From: Planctomycetota bacterium | Lineage (GTDB): Bacteria; Planctomycetota; UBA1135; UBA2386 | NCBI GenBank assembly: GCA_965228735.1 | Contig: OZ245838.1 | Span: 3,680,001 to 3,744,000 of the forward strand | Reading direction: 5' to 3' | Length of the DNA: 64,000 nucleotides | Position numbers and translations under genes: made by a program | The notes under the pieces: model-generated | Told to the model about the DNA's origin: nothing | Seen by the model: the letters and a program-made list of their open reading frames with translations, nothing else | The model's database searches: none | Part shown: piece by piece, positions 28,575 through 37,312 of the stretch | Layout: each line of letters opens with the position of its first letter | Position numbering within the stretch: the stretch's first letter is position 1

Positions 28575-29489
28575 ATGGACCGCCGCCGCTTCCTCGTCTC
28601 CGGCGCTGCTGCTGCCGCCGCCGTCTCGACGGCCAGCACCGCCACTGTCGCGAACACCGCGCCCCCTCGCGGCGAACCGTTCCGCACGCTGTTCGCGCCG
28701 CACTTCGGGATGTTTCGCAATCACGCGAAGGACCCGATCGACCAGCTGCAGTTCGCCCACGACGAAGGGTTCCGCGCCTGGGAGGACAACGGCATGCCGC
28801 GCCGCGAGCGCGCGATGCAGGACAAGATCGCGGCGAAGATGTCCGCGCTCGGAATCACGATGGGCGTGTTCGTCGCCCACGGCGACTTCCAGAAGCCGAC
28901 GTTCGCGTCCGGCAGGAAGCAGCACCGCGACCGTGTCCTGCAGGACATCGAGCAGGCCTGCGAGCTCGCCCAGCGCGTCAACGCGAAGTGGTGCACCGTC
29001 GTGCCCGGCGCGATCGACCCGCGCCTGGACGCGGGCTACCAGCGCGCCAATACGACCGACCTGCTGAAGCGCTGCTGCGAGGTCATCGAGAAGAACGGCG
29101 TCGATCTCACGATGGTGCTCGAGCCGCTCAACTTCCGCGACCACCCCGGCCTGTTCCTGACCAAGATCGCCGATGGCTTCGATCTCTGCCGCAACGTCGG
29201 CAGCCCGCACTGCAAGATCCTCAACGACCTCTACCACCAGCAGATCACCGAGGGCAACCTGATCCCCAACATCGACCGCGCGTGGGCCGAGATCCCGTAC
29301 TACCAGGTCGGGGACAACCCGGGCCGCAAGGAGCCGGGCACGGGGGAGATCAACTACGAGAACGTCTTCGCCCACCTCTGGCGCAAGGGCTTCCGCGGCG
29401 TCGTCGGCATGGAGCACGGCAACGAGCACCCCGGCAAGGACGGCGAGCGCCGGCTCATCGACGCGTATCGCGCCGTCGACGTTTCGTAG
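28575..29489 (+). CDS. Tat-exported hydroxypyruvate isomerase / xylose-isomerase-like TIM-barrel protein
   Basis: MDRRRFL Tat motif; VLEPLN, DLYHQQITEGN, QVGDNPGRKEPGTGEINY, GMEH. Confidence 0.85.
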   Translation: MDRRRFLVSGAAAAAAVSTASTATVANTAPPRGEPFRTLFAPHFGMFRNHAKDPIDQLQFAHDEGFRAWEDNGMPRRERAMQDKIAAKMSALGITMGVFVAHGDFQKPTFASGRKQHRDRVLQDIEQACELAQRVNAKWCTVVPGAIDPRLDAGYQRANTTDLLKRCCEVIEKNGVDLTMVLEPLNFRDHPGLFLTKIADGFDLCRNVGSPHCKILNDLYHQQITEGNLIPNIDRAWAEIPYYQVGDNPGRKEPGTGEINYENVFAHLWRKGFRGVVGMEHGNEHPGKDGERRLIDAYRAVDVS

Positions 29490-30207
29490 CAGGCCGTCGA
29501 TGGGCGGCAGCGGCAAGCGCCGCGGGCAACGCGGCCACGATCGCGGCGCGCACGCTCCGCCACGCACTCGCGGGCCCGAGCGGGAAGCGCTGCGACACTT
29601 CGAGTTCGATGCCGATGTAGCGCTCCGCATCGAACGTGCGCCGCAGGGTGCGCGTCAGGCCGTCCGCGGTGCCGCGATAGGGCTGATTGCGGCGCAGGTG
29701 CAGATCAGGCGCGAGCCCCGCGAGTTCGGCGAGCCAGGCCTTCGCGACCGCGACCTCACCCGATCGAGCCGGGTCGTAGAGCAGTCCGACATCGACGGTG
29801 CGGGGAACGCCATCCCAGATCGGCGTGAACGAATGCACCGAGACGTGCACGACGGCCGCGTGCCGGCGCAGCAGCCGCGTAACCCGGTCTTCGACGGCCG
29901 CGCGCGGCGGCTGCCAGTAGCGCTCGATCGCGAGCTCGCGGTCGGCGGGATCGAGGCCGCGCGACCACTCCGAGAACAGCTGGCGATGACCGCGCGAACG
30001 GTTGGCGTCGACCAGGAGCCGCGAGGCTCGGGCCTCGACCAACGGCGCCCCGTGCACCCGCGCGAGCTCGCGGGCCAGCTGCCGCGCGCCGATATCGCTG
30101 CCGCGGTGCGACGCCAGCGCCCGGTCGGCGCCCCGGAACACCGGCCGGAACCGGGCGGGGATCGCCGCAGTGGCGTGCTCGCACGACACCACGAGTCCGA
30201 CGGTCAC
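29455..30207 (-). CDS. N-formylglutamate amidohydrolase family protein
   Basis: VVSCEHA, H..SDIGA, SRLLVDANR, HVSVHSFTP, DVGLLYDP, NQPYRG, GIELEV. Confidence 0.9.
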   Translation of the reverse strand: MTVGLVVSCEHATAAIPARFRPVFRGADRALASHRGSDIGARQLARELARVHGAPLVEARASRLLVDANRSRGHRQLFSEWSRGLDPADRELAIERYWQPPRAAVEDRVTRLLRRHAAVVHVSVHSFTPIWDGVPRTVDVGLLYDPARSGEVAVAKAWLAELAGLAPDLHLRRNQPYRGTADGLTRTLRRTFDAERYIGIELEVSQRFPLGPASAWRSVRAAIVAALPAALAAAAHRRPATKRRRRDTRR

Positions 30208-31454
30208 GGCCGGAACGACCGCCCGGAGGTGAGGCAGTCGGCCAGCCGCCGATAGACCCGTCGCAGCGCGTCACGATCGAAGTCCTTGCCAAGCGCGCGC
30301 AAGATGCGCTGCGCGAGCGTGCCCTCGCGGGCGATCAGCTGCAGGTGGGCCTGCTGGGTCTTGCTGCCGTCGAAGCACTGCTCGACGAGCCGGTCCCAGA
30401 GCTGCCCCGCGGTCTGCACCTCGCCCGGGTCGGCGCCGAACGCCGCGACGTACTTGCGCGACAACGCCGCCCGCGGCCCGGACTCGAGTCCGCGATCGAG
30501 CAGCGTCACGAGCTCCTCGGACGGCCACTCGCGTTGCGCGTCATGGTGAGCCCAGCGCTCCTCGACCAGCGCATGAACGACGCCGGCCACGGCGCCGCAC
30601 ACGGCGAGGTCGGCGTACGGGCACTCCTGCGCGTCGATCAGCCGGATCTCGATCGCCATGCGATCGAACCGCGCGATCGCGCCGCGCGCGTTCGTGAACT
30701 CCTGGTCCAACAGCTCCGGCGCGGCGTCGAGGGTCCGCAACTCGGCTGCGATCGGCGCGAGCACCTCACGGCGGTAGCCATCGAAGTCGTAGATCGGCTC
30801 CGGGATCACGTCGCCTGCCATCGAACGGCAGCGTGCCGAGTTGCTGCGGTAGAACGCCAGCCGATTGTCGAGGCGACCGCTCGCGGCGCCCTCGACGATC
30901 GGAGAACTCGCGGCGATCGCGGGGATCAACGGCAACACCATTCGAACGGCGGCGAGCAGGCGCGCGAATTCGTGTTCGTCCCGGAACGGCAGGTTGAGAT
31001 GCACGCTCTGGACGTTCGCCCAACCGTGACGGCGGCAGTCGAACAGCGCGTCGTAGGCTCGGTAGATCGGACCCGACTCGTGCGGCCAGATCCGGGTCTC
31101 GGTCGCGGGCTGCATCCACGGGTGCATCCCACCCGGCAGCAGGCGCGCGCCGTGCGGACGCACGGCGTCGGCAAGTCGCTGGATGCCGCGCTCGAACGGC
31201 AGGACCAGGCCGCCGAGCTTGCTGGCCGGGACCGGGTTCTTGAGTTCGACGACATGGCTCACGAGCTCGTTCGAGAACCCGATCTCGTCACCGTCGACGT
31301 CCTCGATCCAGGGATCGTCGTCGCCGGTCGCGCCCCCGAGATCGCGGAGAACGACGTCGGCGATCGATCGGACGTCCAACGTCTCGGCGTCGACGATCAT
31401 GACCTCGATCTCGATGCCCCAGACCTCGAACAACGAGTAGGTGCGAGCGCTCAC
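30204..31454 (-). CDS. Glutamate-cysteine ligase family 2 (GCS2/YbdK-like carboxylate-amine ligase)
   Basis: WGIEIEVMIVD, SNELVSHVVELK, GGMHPWM, HGWANVQSVHLNLPF, ASSP, NARGAIARFDRMAIEIR. GTG start at 31454 overlaps the upstream stop. Confidence 0.88.
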   Translation of the reverse strand: MSARTYSLFEVWGIEIEVMIVDAETLDVRSIADVVLRDLGGATGDDDPWIEDVDGDEIGFSNELVSHVVELKNPVPASKLGGLVLPFERGIQRLADAVRPHGARLLPGGMHPWMQPATETRIWPHESGPIYRAYDALFDCRRHGWANVQSVHLNLPFRDEHEFARLLAAVRMVLPLIPAIAASSPIVEGAASGRLDNRLAFYRSNSARCRSMAGDVIPEPIYDFDGYRREVLAPIAAELRTLDAAPELLDQEFTNARGAIARFDRMAIEIRLIDAQECPYADLAVCGAVAGVVHALVEERWAHHDAQREWPSEELVTLLDRGLESGPRAALSRKYVAAFGADPGEVQTAGQLWDRLVEQCFDGSKTQQAHLQLIAREGTLAQRILRALGKDFDRDALRRVYRRLADCLTSGRSFRP

Positions 31455-32920
31455 GACAGGTCTCCCTGGCGGTAGCTCAAACGGCGAAGGAACACCTGCA
31501 TGATGCGGTTGTAGAGCTCGCCCTTGAGGATCGCGTCCTCGCAGCCGGCGTCGATATTGGGGTTGTCGTTGACCTCGGTCACGACGACCCGGCGGCCGGC
31601 CGACTTGAGATCGACACCGTACAACCCGTCGCCGATGGCCGACGCCGCCCGAACCGCGTTGCGGACGACGGCGGCTGGAACGTCCTCGAGTTCGACCGGC
31701 TCGACCTTGCCGAACCGGAACCGACCACCCTGGGTGCGTTTGACGATCTGCCAATGACCACCGGCCATGTGGTAGCGGCAGGCATACAGCGGCTCGCCGT
31801 CGATGACGCCGATGCGCCAGTCGAAGTCGGTCGGCATGAACTCCTGCAGCAGGAGCAGGTCGGAGTCGGCGAGCATGCGTCCGGCCTCGGCCTCGAGTTC
31901 GGCGCGATCGCGGCACTTGACCACGCCGCGGGAGAACGAGCTGTCGGGCGACTTGAGAACGCACGGAAAGCCGAGCTCGCGCTCGACGAAGTCGGCGTCC
32001 ACCGGGCCGGAGACGAGGGTCCGAGGAGTGGGCACGCCGAGCCGGGCCAGCGCTTCGGCCTGATACACCTTGTTCGTGCAGCGCAGTATCGACGTCGGAT
32101 CGTCCATCACGACCGCCCCTTGCGTCTCGGCACGCTGCGCGAATCGAAAGGTGTGGTGGTCCACGGCGGTCGTCTCACGGATGAACAGGGCGTCGAACTC
32201 GCCGAGGCGACCGTAGTCCTCGCGCCGGATGCGCTCGACGTCGAAGCCGACACTCCGGGCCGCCCGCTCGAACCGCTCGAGCGCGACCGGATCGGACGGC
32301 GCCGGATCCTCGTCGGGATCGTGCAGGATCGCGAGATCGTAGAGCGCCGGGCGCCTCGCCTTCTGCGGCGCACTGCGGCGACCGAGGTAGTCCCGCGCCG
32401 CCGACGCCACGAACTCACGGTGTGACACGGGCACGTCCGGGAACGCGATCGGGTTGACGCGGGTCATCTTCCAGCGGTCGTCGCGATCGCGGCGGAAGTT
32501 GGCGCGCTGCAGCGGCGCCTGGAACGACGAGAACAACCGGTTGGCGAGGCGGGCGTGCCGGCTCGCCAGGTTCTTGCCGAAGTAGACGCTGAGCTCGAAC
32601 TCGCCAGCCTCGATCTCCCGCAGCGACTTCTGGATCAGGGAGTCGAGTTCCTCGTCGATCGTGCGCACGAAGTGTCGGCTCTTCATGTCGAGCACGGCCT
32701 TGAGATCGGGGAACGGCCGGTGGCCGCGCGCTGTGGCCAGCAACGACACGTAGTAGCCCTCGCTCTGATACCGGTACGACCGGCAGAGATTCACGACGCG
32801 CAGGCTCCGCTCGCTGATCCACGCCGGGTCGGTCAGGTAGACCGAAGCGGGGACGACCTCGACCCCGGACGTGTCGAGCGGCCAGTCGTCGAGCCCGTGG
32901 CACACGACAATCGAACGCAT
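31451..32920 (-). CDS. RimK-like ATP-grasp ligase with N-terminal RLAN domain
   Basis: VVNLCRSYRYQSEGYYVSLLA.ARGH (RLAN); DALFIRETT, CTNKVY, PCVLKSPDSSFSRGV, QEFMPT.FDWRIG, YGVDLK, EVNDNP. Confidence 0.92.
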   Translation of the reverse strand: MRSIVVCHGLDDWPLDTSGVEVVPASVYLTDPAWISERSLRVVNLCRSYRYQSEGYYVSLLATARGHRPFPDLKAVLDMKSRHFVRTIDEELDSLIQKSLREIEAGEFELSVYFGKNLASRHARLANRLFSSFQAPLQRANFRRDRDDRWKMTRVNPIAFPDVPVSHREFVASAARDYLGRRSAPQKARRPALYDLAILHDPDEDPAPSDPVALERFERAARSVGFDVERIRREDYGRLGEFDALFIRETTAVDHHTFRFAQRAETQGAVVMDDPTSILRCTNKVYQAEALARLGVPTPRTLVSGPVDADFVERELGFPCVLKSPDSSFSRGVVKCRDRAELEAEAGRMLADSDLLLLQEFMPTDFDWRIGVIDGEPLYACRYHMAGGHWQIVKRTQGGRFRFGKVEPVELEDVPAAVVRNAVRAASAIGDGLYGVDLKSAGRRVVVTEVNDNPNIDAGCEDAILKGELYNRIMQVFLRRLSYRQGDLS

Positions 32921-33666
32921 CAGCGGTCCTTGCCGCCGGCATCGCGGGCGGGCTCGATGAGGATGACGTTGGCGTCGTACGTGAGCACGCCGAGGTAGAT
33001 CGCGCCGATCAGGCGGTCGACCGGGACCGGGTAGGTGTGGTTCTCGGACAACGGATTCGGATGCATCGGGTCGGTGACGTAGACCTCGCGCTTCTTGCCG
33101 CGATAGCCGGTGAGCACGACGAAGTGGCCGACCGGATCACCGACGATATCGTCGGTGACGTCGTCGGTCGGGCGCTGCCGCGCTTCCCGATAGAGGAACG
33201 TCGCGGACAGCCCCGTCAGCACCGGCACCCCGCGGCGGAGCGTGTCACTCAACAGCCGAGGCGTGAGGTCGCGGAACTCGACCCGGCCGCCGCGATCGAG
33301 GAAGTCGGCGTATGCCCTGGCAGCCCCGTGCAACTTCTCGTCGGACCGGCGCGCCTCGGCGCGCCGCAGCAGGTTGTCCCGCAGCGGCGCAGCACCCGGC
33401 TGGAACCAGGTCGGATCGAACACCCGCAGGTTCCAGGTGACGATCTTCACGCGATAGCCGCGCGACAGCGCATCGGTCGCCAGCAGAACACCGAGCGTGC
33501 CGCCGTCCGGCAACGTCGGCACGCGCGCCGCGATCGTCTGCAACGAACCCTCGTCGCCGTAGTGGCGGTAGACCGCGTGCAGGCAGGTCGGGCCACACGT
33601 GGTGTCGTCCGGCTGCCGCCGGATCTCGAAGGGCAGCAACCGGGTGTCCGGAGTCGTTGACGCCAT
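32920..33666 (-). CDS. Papain-like C39-type cysteine peptidase
   Basis: QPDDTTCGPTCL (Gln oxyanion plus catalytic Cys), GHFVVL (His), VYVTDP (Asp). Start at ATG 33666. Confidence 0.85.
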   Translation of the reverse strand: MASTTPDTRLLPFEIRRQPDDTTCGPTCLHAVYRHYGDEGSLQTIAARVPTLPDGGTLGVLLATDALSRGYRVKIVTWNLRVFDPTWFQPGAAPLRDNLLRRAEARRSDEKLHGAARAYADFLDRGGRVEFRDLTPRLLSDTLRRGVPVLTGLSATFLYREARQRPTDDVTDDIVGDPVGHFVVLTGYRGKKREVYVTDPMHPNPLSENHTYPVPVDRLIGAIYLGVLTYDANVILIEPARDAGGKDR

Positions 33667-33855
33667 GGCCAGTTCCTCGATCGGCAATCGTAGAGCCGCG
33701 GTCGGCTCGGGCCGAGCGGTATGCTCCAGTTGCCAGGTCGTCGGACCGGATCCGTTTCGGCGCAGCCCGGCCAGCACGAGCGGGCCGGGCGAAGGGTCGG
33801 ATCACGGGAGCGGGCGCGCGTATGTAGGTGCCAGCACCCCGCGAATCCAGTGCCT

Positions 33856-33881
33856 GCCCGGGCCTATTTCAGGGCCCGGGC
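33856..33881 (-). terminator. GC hairpin directly after the TlpA-like gene; possible terminator
   Basis: GCCCGGGCC-N8-GGCCCGGGC, 7 nt past the stop codon; no clear U-tract. Confidence 0.4.
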
Positions 33882-33888
33882 GGCGAGC

Positions 33889-34962
33889 CTACTCGCCCTT
33901 CATCGCGGCCAGCAGCTCACGGACGACGTCGGTCGCCTGGTTGCCGTTGTGGCCGCGGTAGCGGATCTTGAAGTCCTTGTCGAGCACGACGATCGTCGGC
34001 CAGCCGCGCACGGCCCAGTCCTCCGAGATCTTGCGCTCGCGACCGGGCTGAACGTTCTGGAAGCTGCGCCAGTTGAGCTCGTTCTCGGCGATGGCCTTCT
34101 TCGCGCGTTCGACGGTCTGGTCACTGTTCACGCCGATCAGCGCGAACGGTTCGTCCTGCAACTCTTCCACGAGCGACCGCTCGTGCGGGTACATGGCCCG
34201 GCAAGGGCCTCACCAGTCGCCCCAGAAGTCGAGGAAGACGACCTTGCCCTTGTAGTCGCTGAGCTTGAACTTCACGCCGTCGAGGTCGACGCCGGCGATG
34301 TCGGGCGCCTCACTGCCGATGCCGAACTTCTCGGTCTCGGTCGTGAGCTGCTCGAACTGCTGCCGAATGCGCGGGTCGTCGCCCTTCTCGAGCGCCGCGA
34401 GCATCTTCGCCTTGGCCTTGCTGTAGGCGCGCAGCTGCTCCTCGGCTTCCATCCACGTGAGCCACGTCATGAGGCGCGGGTTCTCGCTGCCCGCCTTGAT
34501 CTTGGCCACGATCTCGTCGCGGTAGTCCGCGCCGACCATGCGTTCGAGCCGCGGCAGGAAACTGCCGATCAGCCAGATGTCCTCGTCGTCGAGGTGCTCG
34601 TTCACGAGGATGTCGAGGACCTCCCGGTAGTGCTCCGGCTTGCTGCTGTAGTTGAGCGCCGGCACGAGAAAGCGAACGGCGGCGTCGGGATACGTCTCGG
34701 CCCCGGCGAGGAACTCACCACGCAGCGGCGAGAAGTCCGGCCGCATCGCGATCGCCTTGACCGGCTTGCCGGGCTCGGCGTTCTTCGATGCTTCGGAGGC
34801 CTTTTTGATGTCCTCCCGCCATTGTTTGATGATCTTGCCCCGCTTGCTCTCGAGCTCCTGCAGGTGCGCATCCGCGCTCTTCTTCGCGCCAGGATCGTCC
34901 TGGGCGGGCAGGCAGCCGAGGATCAGCGCGGCGGAGAGCCACGTGAGTGTTCGGTTCATCAC
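33889..34962 (-). CDS. TlpA/redoxin-family thiol-disulfide oxidoreductase, probable selenoprotein (WUGPC)
   Basis: ORFs 34210..34962 and 33889..34194 are in the same frame and joined by TGA(34210-12) GGC CCT TGC CGG GCC, giving ...APDIAGVDLDG..FKLSDYKGKVVFLDFWGDW-U-GPCRAMYPHERSL...GVNSD...WAVRGWPTIVVLD. N-terminal signal/lipobox ILGC. 357 aa from GTG 34962 (ATG alternative at 34959). Confidence 0.9.
34168..34209 (-). promoter_or_regulatory. Candidate bacterial SECIS hairpin(s)
   Basis: GGCCC-UUGCC-GGGCC immediately after the UGA, then CACGAGC-GGUC-GCUCGUG with a G-initiated loop starting 32 nt after UGA. Confidence 0.55.
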
Positions 34963-35071: not shown

Positions 35072-37312
35072 TCACTGCCGCCGCGCCGCGACGTACTGCA
35101 CCGGCCACGCCTGGCTCGCGATCCGGCGCTCGTTGGCCGCCCGCAGCGTCATGCTGCCGTCCTCGAGGTGACCGCGCGCGATCGCGCAGAGGTCGGCGCG
35201 GCCCGCCGCGATGATCGTGTCGACGTGGTCGATGCTCTGGATCGCGCCGACGGCCATGACCGGCACATTGGCCTCGAGCCGGATGCGTTCGGCGAACGGC
35301 ACCTGATACATCCGCCCGTAGACCGGCTCGGACTCGGGCGCGTTACCGGCGGAGCTCACGTCGATCACGTCGCAGCCGCGTTCTTTGAGCCAGCCCGCGA
35401 CGACGACGGCCTCGTCGATCGTGAAACCGCGGCCCTCGTCCTCGAGCCAGTCGCTCGCCGAGATGCGCACGAACAGCGGCTTGTCGTCGGGCCACGCGGC
35501 TCGCACGGCCTCGAGCACCTCGAGCGGGTAGCGCGCCCGATTCGCGAGCTCGCCGCCGTAGTCGTCGTCGCGGTGGTTGCTCAGCGGCGACAGGAAGCTC
35601 GACAGCAGATAGCCGTGCGCCATGTGCAGCTCGATCAGGTCGAACCCGGCACGATCGCAACGCTGCGCGGCTGCGACGAACGCGTCCCGCACGCGATCCA
35701 TGTCGGCGCGCGCCATCGCGCGCGGCGTCGGCCAGCCGGCATCGAACGGCACCGCGGACGGACCGATGCTCGGCCACGCACCCTCGGTCAGCGGCGCGTC
35801 GCCCTCCCACGGCAGGCTGCACGACGCCTTGCGACCCGCGTGCGCGAGCTGCATGCCGATCTTGCTGCCGGAGTGGCCGTGGACGAACTGGACGATCCGC
35901 CGCCACGCCGCTTCCTGCTCGTCGCTCCACATGCCGGCGCAGCCATACGTGATGCGACCGTCCGCCTCGACGTTGGTCATCTCCGTCATCACGAGGCCCG
36001 CGCCGCCCGTCGCGCGGCCGCCGAGATGCACGAGGTGCCAGTCGTTCGGCACGCCATCCGTCGCCGAGTACTGGCACATCGGTGACACCACGACGCGGTT
36101 CGGCAGCGTGCAGCCGCGCACCACGAACGGCAGGAACCCGGGCGGTGTCGCCGCCGCGATCTCCGCTCCCGCGGCCTCTTCCCGCTGCACGGCCGCGTCG
36201 ACGCGTTCGACCAGCGCCGGGTCGCGCAGCCGCAGATTGCCGTAGGTGATCCGCTTGCTGCGCGTCATGAGGTTGAACACGAAGCGCTCCGGGTCCTGAC
36301 CGAGGTAGCGCGCGCTGTTCTCGAACCACTCGAGGCTCGTCTGCGCGGCCTTCTGCGTCTTCGCGACGTCGACCCAGCGCCCGTCCTCGTAGGCGGCGAG
36401 CCCGGCGGCGACATCGCCCGCATGCTCCGTCAGCGCGTCGACGAGCGCGATCGCATCCTCCATCGCGAGCTTGGTGCCGGAGCCGATCGAGAAGTGGGCC
36501 GTATGCGCGGCGTCGCCGACCAGCACGACGTTGCCGTGCCGCCACGACTCGCACTTCACCGTCGGGAACGTGCGCCAGATCGACCGGTTGGTCAGCAGCT
36601 CCTCGCCCTCGAGGTGCTCGGCGAACAGCTGCTTGCAGAACGCCGCGGACTGCGCCTCGTCGAGCTGGTCCAGCCCCGCGCGCCGCCAGGTGTCCTCGTG
36701 GCACTCGACGATCCACGTGCCCCGCCCCTCCTCGAACGGATACGCGTGCACCTGGAACAGCCCCCACTCCGTCTCCGTGAAGACGAACGTGAACGCCGTC
36801 ATCTTCTTGGTCGTGCCGAACCACGCGAACTTGCACTTGCGCCAATCCAGCGTCGGCCGGAACGAGCCCGCGAAGTGCTGCCGCACGCGACTGTTCACGC
36901 CGTCCGCGGCGACGACGAGGTCGTGCTGCGAGGCGAGCGCATCGATGTCATCCACGGTGTGCTCGAAGTGCAGCCCGACGCCGAGCTCGCGGCACCGCGC
37001 CTGCAGGATCAAGAGCAGCTCCTTGCGCGCGAGGCCGCAGAAGCCGTGCCCGGTGCTCGTGACCTTGGTATCGCGATAGAACGTGTCGATGTCGGTCCAG
37101 TAGGCGAACCGCGACTCGATCGCGGCGAAGCTCTCGGGATCCCGGAGCTTGAAGTTGCCGAGCGTCTCGTCGGAGAAGACCACGCCCCAACCGAACGTGT
37201 CGTCGGCCCGGTTCTGCTCGTAGACGTCGATCTCGGCATCCGGCGCGCGCTGCTTGAACAGCAGCGCGAAGTAGAGGGACGCCGGCCCGCCGCCGATGCA
37301 CGCGATCTTCAT
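35072..37312 (-). CDS. Bifunctional salicylyl-CoA 5-hydroxylase / anthraniloyl-CoA monooxygenase-reductase (FAD monooxygenase plus Old Yellow Enzyme domain)
   Basis: IACIGGGPA, DTFGWGVVFSD, GDAAHTAHFSIGSGTKLAMED; C-terminal NRVVVSPMCQYSA, QLAHAGRK, ELHMAHGYLLSSFLSP. Confidence 0.93.
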   Translation of the reverse strand: MKIACIGGGPASLYFALLFKQRAPDAEIDVYEQNRADDTFGWGVVFSDETLGNFKLRDPESFAAIESRFAYWTDIDTFYRDTKVTSTGHGFCGLARKELLLILQARCRELGVGLHFEHTVDDIDALASQHDLVVAADGVNSRVRQHFAGSFRPTLDWRKCKFAWFGTTKKMTAFTFVFTETEWGLFQVHAYPFEEGRGTWIVECHEDTWRRAGLDQLDEAQSAAFCKQLFAEHLEGEELLTNRSIWRTFPTVKCESWRHGNVVLVGDAAHTAHFSIGSGTKLAMEDAIALVDALTEHAGDVAAGLAAYEDGRWVDVAKTQKAAQTSLEWFENSARYLGQDPERFVFNLMTRSKRITYGNLRLRDPALVERVDAAVQREEAAGAEIAAATPPGFLPFVVRGCTLPNRVVVSPMCQYSATDGVPNDWHLVHLGGRATGGAGLVMTEMTNVEADGRITYGCAGMWSDEQEAAWRRIVQFVHGHSGSKIGMQLAHAGRKASCSLPWEGDAPLTEGAWPSIGPSAVPFDAGWPTPRAMARADMDRVRDAFVAAAQRCDRAGFDLIELHMAHGYLLSSFLSPLSNHRDDDYGGELANRARYPLEVLEAVRAAWPDDKPLFVRISASDWLEDEGRGFTIDEAVVVAGWLKERGCDVIDVSSAGNAPESEPVYGRMYQVPFAERIRLEANVPVMAVGAIQSIDHVDTIIAAGRADLCAIARGHLEDGSMTLRAANERRIASQAWPVQYVAARRQ

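Follow-up and report, generated by a model that had tools for sequence, protein, structure and literature searches.

The locus considered here raises the question of whether the minus strand at positions 33889 to 34962 of the window, by which we mean the whole 64,000-nucleotide stretch of planctomycete DNA that was analyzed, holds two short genes or a single thioredoxin-like gene read through an in-frame TGA. Two table-11 open reading frames, 34210-34962 (250 aa) and 33889-34194 (101 aa), share one frame, and with TGA translated as U they give a protein of 357 residues in which U251, the sole recoded codon, lies in the context FLDFWGDW-U-GPCRAMYPHERSL. A first-pass annotation had joined the two frames, had recognized in FWGDW-U-GPC a WCGPC active site with TGA at the first cysteine, and had placed the cis-Pro motif GWPT beyond the TGA. 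All of this stands: there is a single minus-strand frame with one TGA, and GWPT follows 71 codons downstream. The features of the locus are as follows:

33889..34962, minus strand: complete coding frame of 356-357 aa containing a single in-frame TGA (start GTG 34962 or ATG 34959; TAG stop 33891-33889)
34903..34959, minus strand: predicted cleavable signal peptide, by sequence pattern, with basic start, hydrophobic core, and ...LPA/Q (cut between A and Q)
34327..34902, minus strand: N-terminal all-helical domain, 192 aa (model pLDDT 94.8, pTM 0.83)
33892..34332, minus strand: TlpA/ResA-like thioredoxin domain (PF00578, PF08534; Foldseek 4grf and ResA chains; phmmer on PDB)
34210..34212, minus strand: TGA within the frame, predicted to encode selenocysteine (U251) in place of the attacking Cys
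34201..34203, minus strand: TGC, resolving cysteine of UxxC (Cys in 144/144 UGA genes)
34195..34209, minus strand: first hairpin after UGA, 5 bp with a 5-nt loop (-9.0 kcal/mol)
34168..34185, minus strand: predicted SECIS, 7-bp stem and GGUC loop, over codons H-E-R-S-L-V (-10.5 kcal/mol)
33997..33999, minus strand: Pro322 in the GWPT motif, at the cis-proline loop of thioredoxin by alignment (no variation in either alignment)
33856..33881, minus strand: 9-bp inverted repeat directly after the stop codon (-21.2 kcal/mol), without a U-tail

The ATG at 34959 is a likelier start than the GTG at 34962, because close homologues start M-N/K-R/P-T. The inverted repeat after the stop codon is possibly a terminator or an mRNA end structure; the terminator scan left it uncalled. 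A promoter scan around the gene found nothing, and two terminator-like matches on the opposite strand were at chance level. Upstream, at 35072-37312 (minus strand), lies a gene for a 746-aa flavoprotein, by eye presumably a salicylyl-CoA 5-hydroxylase-type bifunctional enzyme, which adjoins the orthologue in one same-genus locus. Downstream, at 29455-33777 (minus strand), is a run of four genes with overlapping ends that is not common to the compared orthologue loci; by eye we take these to be peptidase C39-like, RimK-like ATP-grasp, glutamate-cysteine ligase family, and N-formylglutamate amidohydrolase genes. Within the 1.5-2.5 kb of flank compared around orthologues, the one upstream gene in the one same-genus locus was the only conserved neighbor, and the neighborhood gives no pointer to a substrate. 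Small shares of four RNA runs contained only pieces of relatives, 80-95% alike, around the active site.

A sequencing error as the source of the TGA was rejected. The same three letters stand at 34210-34212 in contigs from four runs of four studies, two of them near-identical and possibly the source of the window DNA, and no other letter occurs there in the covering contigs. One of these contigs, from a strain that differs at 15 other places in the stretch, has the TGA unchanged.

The 7.19-Mb genome has the complete selABCD set for decoding such a codon: selA at C1:121595, selD adjoining it, selB at C1:1542467, and tRNA-Sec at C1:2825092, each over its curated cut-off. The selD gene carries an in-frame TGA of its own, and tRNA-Sec(UCA) is the only tRNA with a UCA anticodon called in the genome. 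Judged by the names attached to its homologues, the lineage belongs to Planctomycetota.

The TGA is shared across a family. It recurs in three full-length paralogues and one more distant TlpA of the same genome, in 68 of 75 matches from 41 related genomes, and in 148 of the 150 listed matches from a phylum sample of 301 genomes, 80 of which match the thioredoxin domain at E<=1e-30 (11 further matches fell outside the 150). SelA is present in 80/80 of the genomes with the family compared to 219/301 overall, these being kin genomes and thus non-independent. UGA forms are also found in Verrucomicrobiota records. Among the best 120 database proteins, 78 end exactly at the Trp before the codon and 34 are full-length with Cys in its place, which bears out the Sec/Cys pairing expected of a selenoprotein. 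Six more (P0002, P0003, P0028, P0030, P0038, and P0045) are full-length and carry Ser, Leu, Arg, or Trp at that position, each one base change from TGA; either the attacking residue has been lost in nature or the sequences contain errors. In a tree of the thioredoxin domain, P0002 and P0003 form a group beside the window gene's clade. The family also occurs in tandem copies, up to three in 6 kb (L030, L043, L071, L079, L124, L134, and L147), and in some tandem sets the copy beside a UGA gene has Cys or Trp.

For the region after the codon, we extracted 164 distinct motif hits from all loci. Of these, 144 UGA genes and 12 Cys genes belonging to the family were retained; a distant paralogue with UGA, four TlpAs with Cys that are likewise distant, and three rows in which the site has another residue were set aside. 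The frame stays open after the UGA for a median of 109 codons in the 144 UGA genes. Two hairpins had been noted here beforehand, and both exist; only the second, likely the SECIS, is retained family-wide, and the first is variable. Six of the seven pairs of the second hairpin are kept in 136-143 of the 144 genes, compared to 85-131 of 144 for the five pairs of the first. The codons over the second hairpin are frozen (CGG in 136/136, TCG in 137/137, and CTC in 142/143, against backgrounds of 12%, 22%, and 50%), and this synonymous freeze is limited to the hairpin, codon choice being ordinary on either side. The same 12 nt encode E-R-S-L in 133 of the 134 genes with those residues, where 0.9% would be expected from background codon use; the 12-nt core is thus identical in 133/144 UGA genes, and most of the other 11 have other hairpins. 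The exact 18-mer of the hairpin occurs four times in 7.19 Mb, each time 27 nt after the TGA of a paralogue.

Bacterial SECIS elements are defined, in section 5 of PMC13188914, by a loop of 3-9 nt with G first, a spacing of 16-37 nt, a stem of 4-16 bp, and an energy of <= -7.5 kcal/mol. The hairpin at 34168..34185, whose GGUC loop starts 31 nt after the UGA, lies within every limit of that consensus model. The folding energy of the region after the UGA is no better than that of shuffles (z -0.64 to -0.77), so the SECIS case rests on conservation and not on stability, and Rfam gave no match near gathering score. None of the 12 Cys genes has the hairpin core, but none of them codes E-R-S-L either. 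A shorter DNA pattern gave seven Cys genes, of which only two code E-R-S-L, too few for a matched control; the hairpin is perfect in one and nearly so in the other, which fits a leftover SECIS after recent loss of selenocysteine but also allows some other constraint on the bases. By DNA pattern, Cys genes coding P-H-E-R-S-L-V numbered 0 in the metagenome collection and 0 in 401 phylum genomes. A plain six-frame search for the W-U-x-x-C motif was swamped by chance matches. The frozen 12-nt core can serve directly as a handle for finding family members, and it is also a natural SECIS for testing.

The part of the protein after the UGA is the better conserved half, and relaxed selection there, which would have told against the selenoprotein reading, was not seen. 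Compared with 11 orthologues, 55-79% of residues are identical beyond the SECIS and 25-46% in the N-terminal domain. In the one close, unsaturated pair, dN/dS is 0.18 in the N-terminal domain, 0.18 in the thioredoxin part before the UGA, and 0.21 after the SECIS. For the window gene itself the values after the SECIS are 0.27-0.74, blurred by saturation and GC bias, and those of the N-terminal domain against distant orthologues, 0.67-1.32, are saturated and were not taken as relaxed selection.

The UGA at 34210..34212 is thus almost certainly read as selenocysteine, as judged from the sequence record. The contrary proposal, that the TGA is a true stop which divides the locus into a 250-aa protein and one of 101 aa beginning with the ATG at 34194, or marks a pseudogene, or else that UGA is read as Trp or Cys in some other way, can draw on the in-frame ATG five codons past the TGA, on the 78/120 homologues annotated as ending there, and on the few homologues that have Ser, Leu, Arg, or Trp in place of Sec, in which the residue can evidently be lost. 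We nevertheless consider it very improbable. A split would part both active-site residues and the strands of one fold; the same TGA stands in 144 distinct genes with frozen SECIS codons; the TGA family was never found without selA; the tRNA-Sec is the only UCA-anticodon tRNA found; and the ATG at 34194 encodes a Met that is also present in Cys homologues.

What kind of protein this gives can be read from its domains. The Pfam family AhpC-TSA (PF00578) covers residues 215-335 (E 5.9e-18) and spans the TGA, as do the matches to Redoxin and Thioredoxin_8; scores are above gathering for PF00578 (65.4 vs 26 bits) and PF08534 (59.7 vs 26.6 bits). An AlphaFold model of the mature chain, made from a 75-sequence alignment with U written as C, has a pLDDT of 95.8 and a thioredoxin fold that is intact across the codon, with the UxxC motif and cis-Pro loop in place. 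Foldseek places the C-terminal domain with ResA and with TlpA-like domains from Bacteroides (E about 1e-10; TM over the target 0.87-0.88). The best NCBIfam match is ResA (E 4.9e-22), and the scores for ResA, TlpA, and DsbE (78.6/170, 50/230, and 36.2/123 bits) are all under the curated cut-off, as is the score for every other NCBIfam model.

The protein is like TlpA/ResA/DsbE proteins (PDB 4grf, 2lrn, 1su9, and 1jfu), which are extracytoplasmic, in its fold, W-x-x-P-C motif, and cis-Pro loop, and differs from them in having Sec for the first Cys, Met for Glu at +3, and a large helical domain. The Met lies three residues after the second Cys, where 2lrn and 4nmu have Glu and 3gl3 has Ser; the Glu three residues after CxxC has a role in ResA, and the title of one PDB entry among the fold matches names a ResA E80Q form.

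The N-terminal extension had been described as helical and of about 190 residues, and it indeed comprises 192 residues, all helix in the model: one 31-residue helix, a loop, and then stacked helical hairpins. Neither Pfam nor NCBIfam has a family for it, and Foldseek returned nothing at E<=0.001 and otherwise just helical repeats of a generic kind. A related domain occurs in Cys homologues as well, so its presence does not depend on selenocysteine. Ahead of it, the N-terminal sequence pattern, common to close homologues, suggests export, which we consider very probable. The Q after A at the predicted cleavage site is invariant or nearly so in 70 aligned homologues, and a lipobox is unlikely because homologues do not conserve the Cys at position 16.

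A quick tree of 201 thioredoxin domains (143 U, 50 C), midpoint-rooted on 147 columns and sampled around the Sec query, has the Cys forms scattered in many places. It requires at least 20 Sec/Cys changes, six of them forced by well-supported branches, which hints at repeated Sec-to-Cys change in the family. It suggests that Sec may be ancestral, and no more than suggests it, since the tree is quick and midpoint-rooted and the sampling favored Sec.

UxxC thioredoxin-fold selenoproteins had been cited beforehand as a recognized class, and such families are indeed entered under PF00578, cd02966, and PF08534 in PMC13188914. The window gene is a well-supported selenoprotein gene of this already catalogued kind, sharing with the catalogued proteins the Pfam domains, the UxxC motif, the decoding machinery, and a SECIS in the model range. 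It is set apart from them by description, in having the 192-aa helical N-terminal domain without a family, and its signature W-U-[GP]-P-C-R-A-M-[YFI]-P-H-E-R-S-L, with a SECIS core that hardly varies across Planctomycetota and Verrucomicrobiota, is distinct from the catalogued UxxC entries. The curated models NF041054 (ResA-like WAxxUGC) and NF053656 (TUGYCR) also describe thioredoxin-fold selenoproteins and match the thioredoxin domain weakly, at 38.4/300 and 24.7/100 bits; their motifs differ.

Table S9 of PMC4807772 (2016) lists two split "thiol-disulfide isomerase-like thioredoxin" candidates from planctomycete P1, with SECIS scored absent. These too are planctomycete genes split into two ORFs at UGA, and the table gives their closest Cys match in Singulisphaera, a TlpA of which (P0107) is also among the window gene's homologues. 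By description they are likely the same family, the difference being that a conserved SECIS is evident in the window family. Planctomycetota has 0 occurrences in the 2026 review PMC13188914. BSepDB (PMC13326102) has at least 407 Planctomycetota genomes screened and a top ten of 46 to 63 genes, so that genes of the window type may be included there. Our literature search found no work on selenoproteomes of Planctomycetota; selenoprotein-rich planctomycetes appeared only in a listing.

We propose that the locus is one gene which, with its UGA read as selenocysteine, probably encodes an exported UxxC thioredoxin-fold reductase of extracytoplasmic disulfides or oxidized cysteines, fed by DsbD. The Sec-dependent oxidoreductase of the first-pass annotation is supported by selABCD, the Sec/Cys pairing, the conserved C-terminal half, and the conserved SECIS-like hairpin. 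SelB would bind the GGUC-loop hairpin and deliver Sec-tRNA, as in the established bacterial mechanism, and the signal peptide would be cleaved after export. The selenolate would then attack a substrate disulfide, with Cys254 as the resolving residue, and the sole DsbD of the genome would reduce the resulting Se-S bond again. Substrate choice is likely the role of the helical N-terminal domain; this would account for its fast divergence and for the four paralogues differing mainly there.

In the genome, which is 93% complete, the DsbD transmembrane domain occurs once and DsbB has no match; the link to DsbD is one of co-occurrence in the genome. This DsbD (C1:4263182-4266040, minus strand) has two N-terminal domains with Cys pairs, a membrane domain, and a C-terminal thioredoxin domain. 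The last of these itself reads GFN-U-GSC with an in-frame TGA, and a TGA at some position is contained in 29/35 matches to this domain in relatives. The same genome encodes an MsrA, a predicted lipoprotein whose catalytic site carries a TGA and which is a candidate electron acceptor. A literature search for periplasmic selenoproteins tied to DsbD found none.

Three other functions would leave the selenoprotein as it is. It could be a disulfide isomerase or chaperone-isomerase of the DsbC/ScsC type, its helical domain binding unfolded exported proteins or oligomerizing (DsbC and ScsC require N-terminal oligomerization). The long first helix and helical stack are typical of binding scaffolds, and a DsbD whose N-terminal part has two periplasmic domains could supply isomerases with electrons; yet the fold matches are to TlpA/ResA/DsbE-type reductases rather than DsbC and the 93%-complete genome lacks a DsbB match, and we regard an isomerase as unlikely. 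A protein dedicated to cytochrome c maturation, reducing apocytochrome CxxCH like ResA or CcmG, appears a more doubtful proposition. ResA is the best NCBIfam match and a cytochrome c assembly protein is encoded in the genome, but the ResA score is 78.6 bits against a cut-off of 170, the assembly gene lies 2.9 Mb from the window gene, Met replaces the ResA Glu, there are four paralogues, and a cleaved signal is predicted instead of a membrane anchor. The AhpC-TSA/Redoxin fold, together with a catalogued class named "Prx-like," might suggest a direct periplasmic peroxidase or selenoxide-type antioxidant. The peroxidatic PxxxTxxC/U motif is not found, however, the sequence reading FWGDW-U-GPC without TxxU; UxxC with cis-Pro is a disulfide-exchange layout, and separate TxxU peroxiredoxins exist in the genome, which makes this function very improbable.

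A coding-score scan of the genome gave 377 TGA junctions and was then widened; 60 junctions were picked by eye for a domain scan, 46 of the 60 also in NCBIfam. In 26 genes the TGA lies inside a family domain or where one begins, which with the four TlpA paralogues makes 30. Six more candidates have a TGA conserved in relatives and eight more have a similar look, so that the genome may hold about 30-44 candidate selenoprotein genes; the remaining picked junctions were rejected as ordinary gene boundaries or unsupported. The candidates include peroxiredoxins, thioredoxin-like proteins, two deiodinase-like proteins, a glutaredoxin, two AhpD-like proteins, ArsC, a rhodanese, a SelL-related protein, HMA, MsrA, and a two-Sec VPGUxxT protein.

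One candidate gene, C1:1761543-1762646 (plus strand), encodes a cobalamin-independent methionine synthase-like protein in which PF01717 spans the codon in R-T-F-M-U-A-T-L. The site is U in seven genomes and Cys in five, a conserved hairpin (6-7 bp stem, CGUGAY loop) lies about 18 nt after the UGA, and the protein retains intact H-x-C and P-D-C-G motifs. The term "methionine synthase" is absent from the text of PMC13188914, and a literature search by title and start of abstract gave nothing on point for a Sec-containing cobalamin-independent form. The protein is a candidate for a new selenoprotein family.

Four predicted exported proteins (C1:4855623, minus; 3484699, plus; 6929513, plus; and 7087946, minus) share G-H-P-L-G-[CQ]-T-U-[NG]-N-G and match neither Pfam nor NCBIfam; a TGA is present in 25/25 matches from 18 of 41 genomes. 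Related-looking sites lie at 2546238 and 5497385, the latter with TGA in 25/26 matches. A predicted exported protein without a family match at C1:5150736 (plus strand) reads D-W-L-U-M-C-L, with TGA in 15/16 matches, the remaining match being a short piece that stops before the site. FG-GAP repeat proteins have U beside Cys (UC/CU) at C1:3065085 (plus), 5872224 (minus), 406817 (minus), and 5458926 (plus), and for the first (L197) a TGA is present in 21/21 matches; FG-GAP/ASPIC candidates are found in Table S9 of PMC4807772, and FG-GAP is absent from the text of PMC13188914. Two frames with repeated small metal-binding-like domains have two TGAs each: C1:1929-2561 (minus strand; G-G-U-A-A and L-G-U-M-G) and C1:583340-583819 (plus strand; M-T-U-G-G-C). 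At C1:4855889-4857010 (plus strand), a Cys-rich repeat peptide gene directly before a gene for an MbnB/TglH/ChrH-family enzyme (PF05114, E 1e-73) was rejected as a selenoprotein gene, its TGA being a true stop; the two likely form a RiPP cluster.

The genome also has two strong matches to heme-copper oxidase subunit I. Section 10 of PMC13188914 states that selenoproteins are rarely kept by aerobic bacteria and that Sec-to-Cys change is rare, and the oxidase genes, the four copies of this selenoprotein, and the 30-44 candidates are to be set beside that statement. What lifts the gene above routine is the combination of an unmodelled subfamily, a frozen SECIS, and a selenium-rich, oxidase-bearing host; the family is widespread, is mis-split in databases (78/120 best matches ending at the codon), and is without a curated model. 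More tentatively, the gene may be the substrate end of a Sec-based periplasmic reducing chain in oxygen-respiring Planctomycetota. In such a chain, a Sec-DsbD would pass electrons to Sec-TlpA paralogues, each aimed by its new helical domain, and these to exported Sec enzymes such as the lipoprotein MsrA. Within the subfamily, selenocysteine would be the ancestral state and would have given way to Cys repeatedly, opposite to what is usual in bacteria, and the selenoproteomes of the lineage (30-44 genes here) would be near the largest on record and absent from current reviews. A single gene is insufficient alone to carry this, but if borne out, it would make Planctomycetota an overlooked selenium-rich group that uses selenocysteine in the cell envelope.
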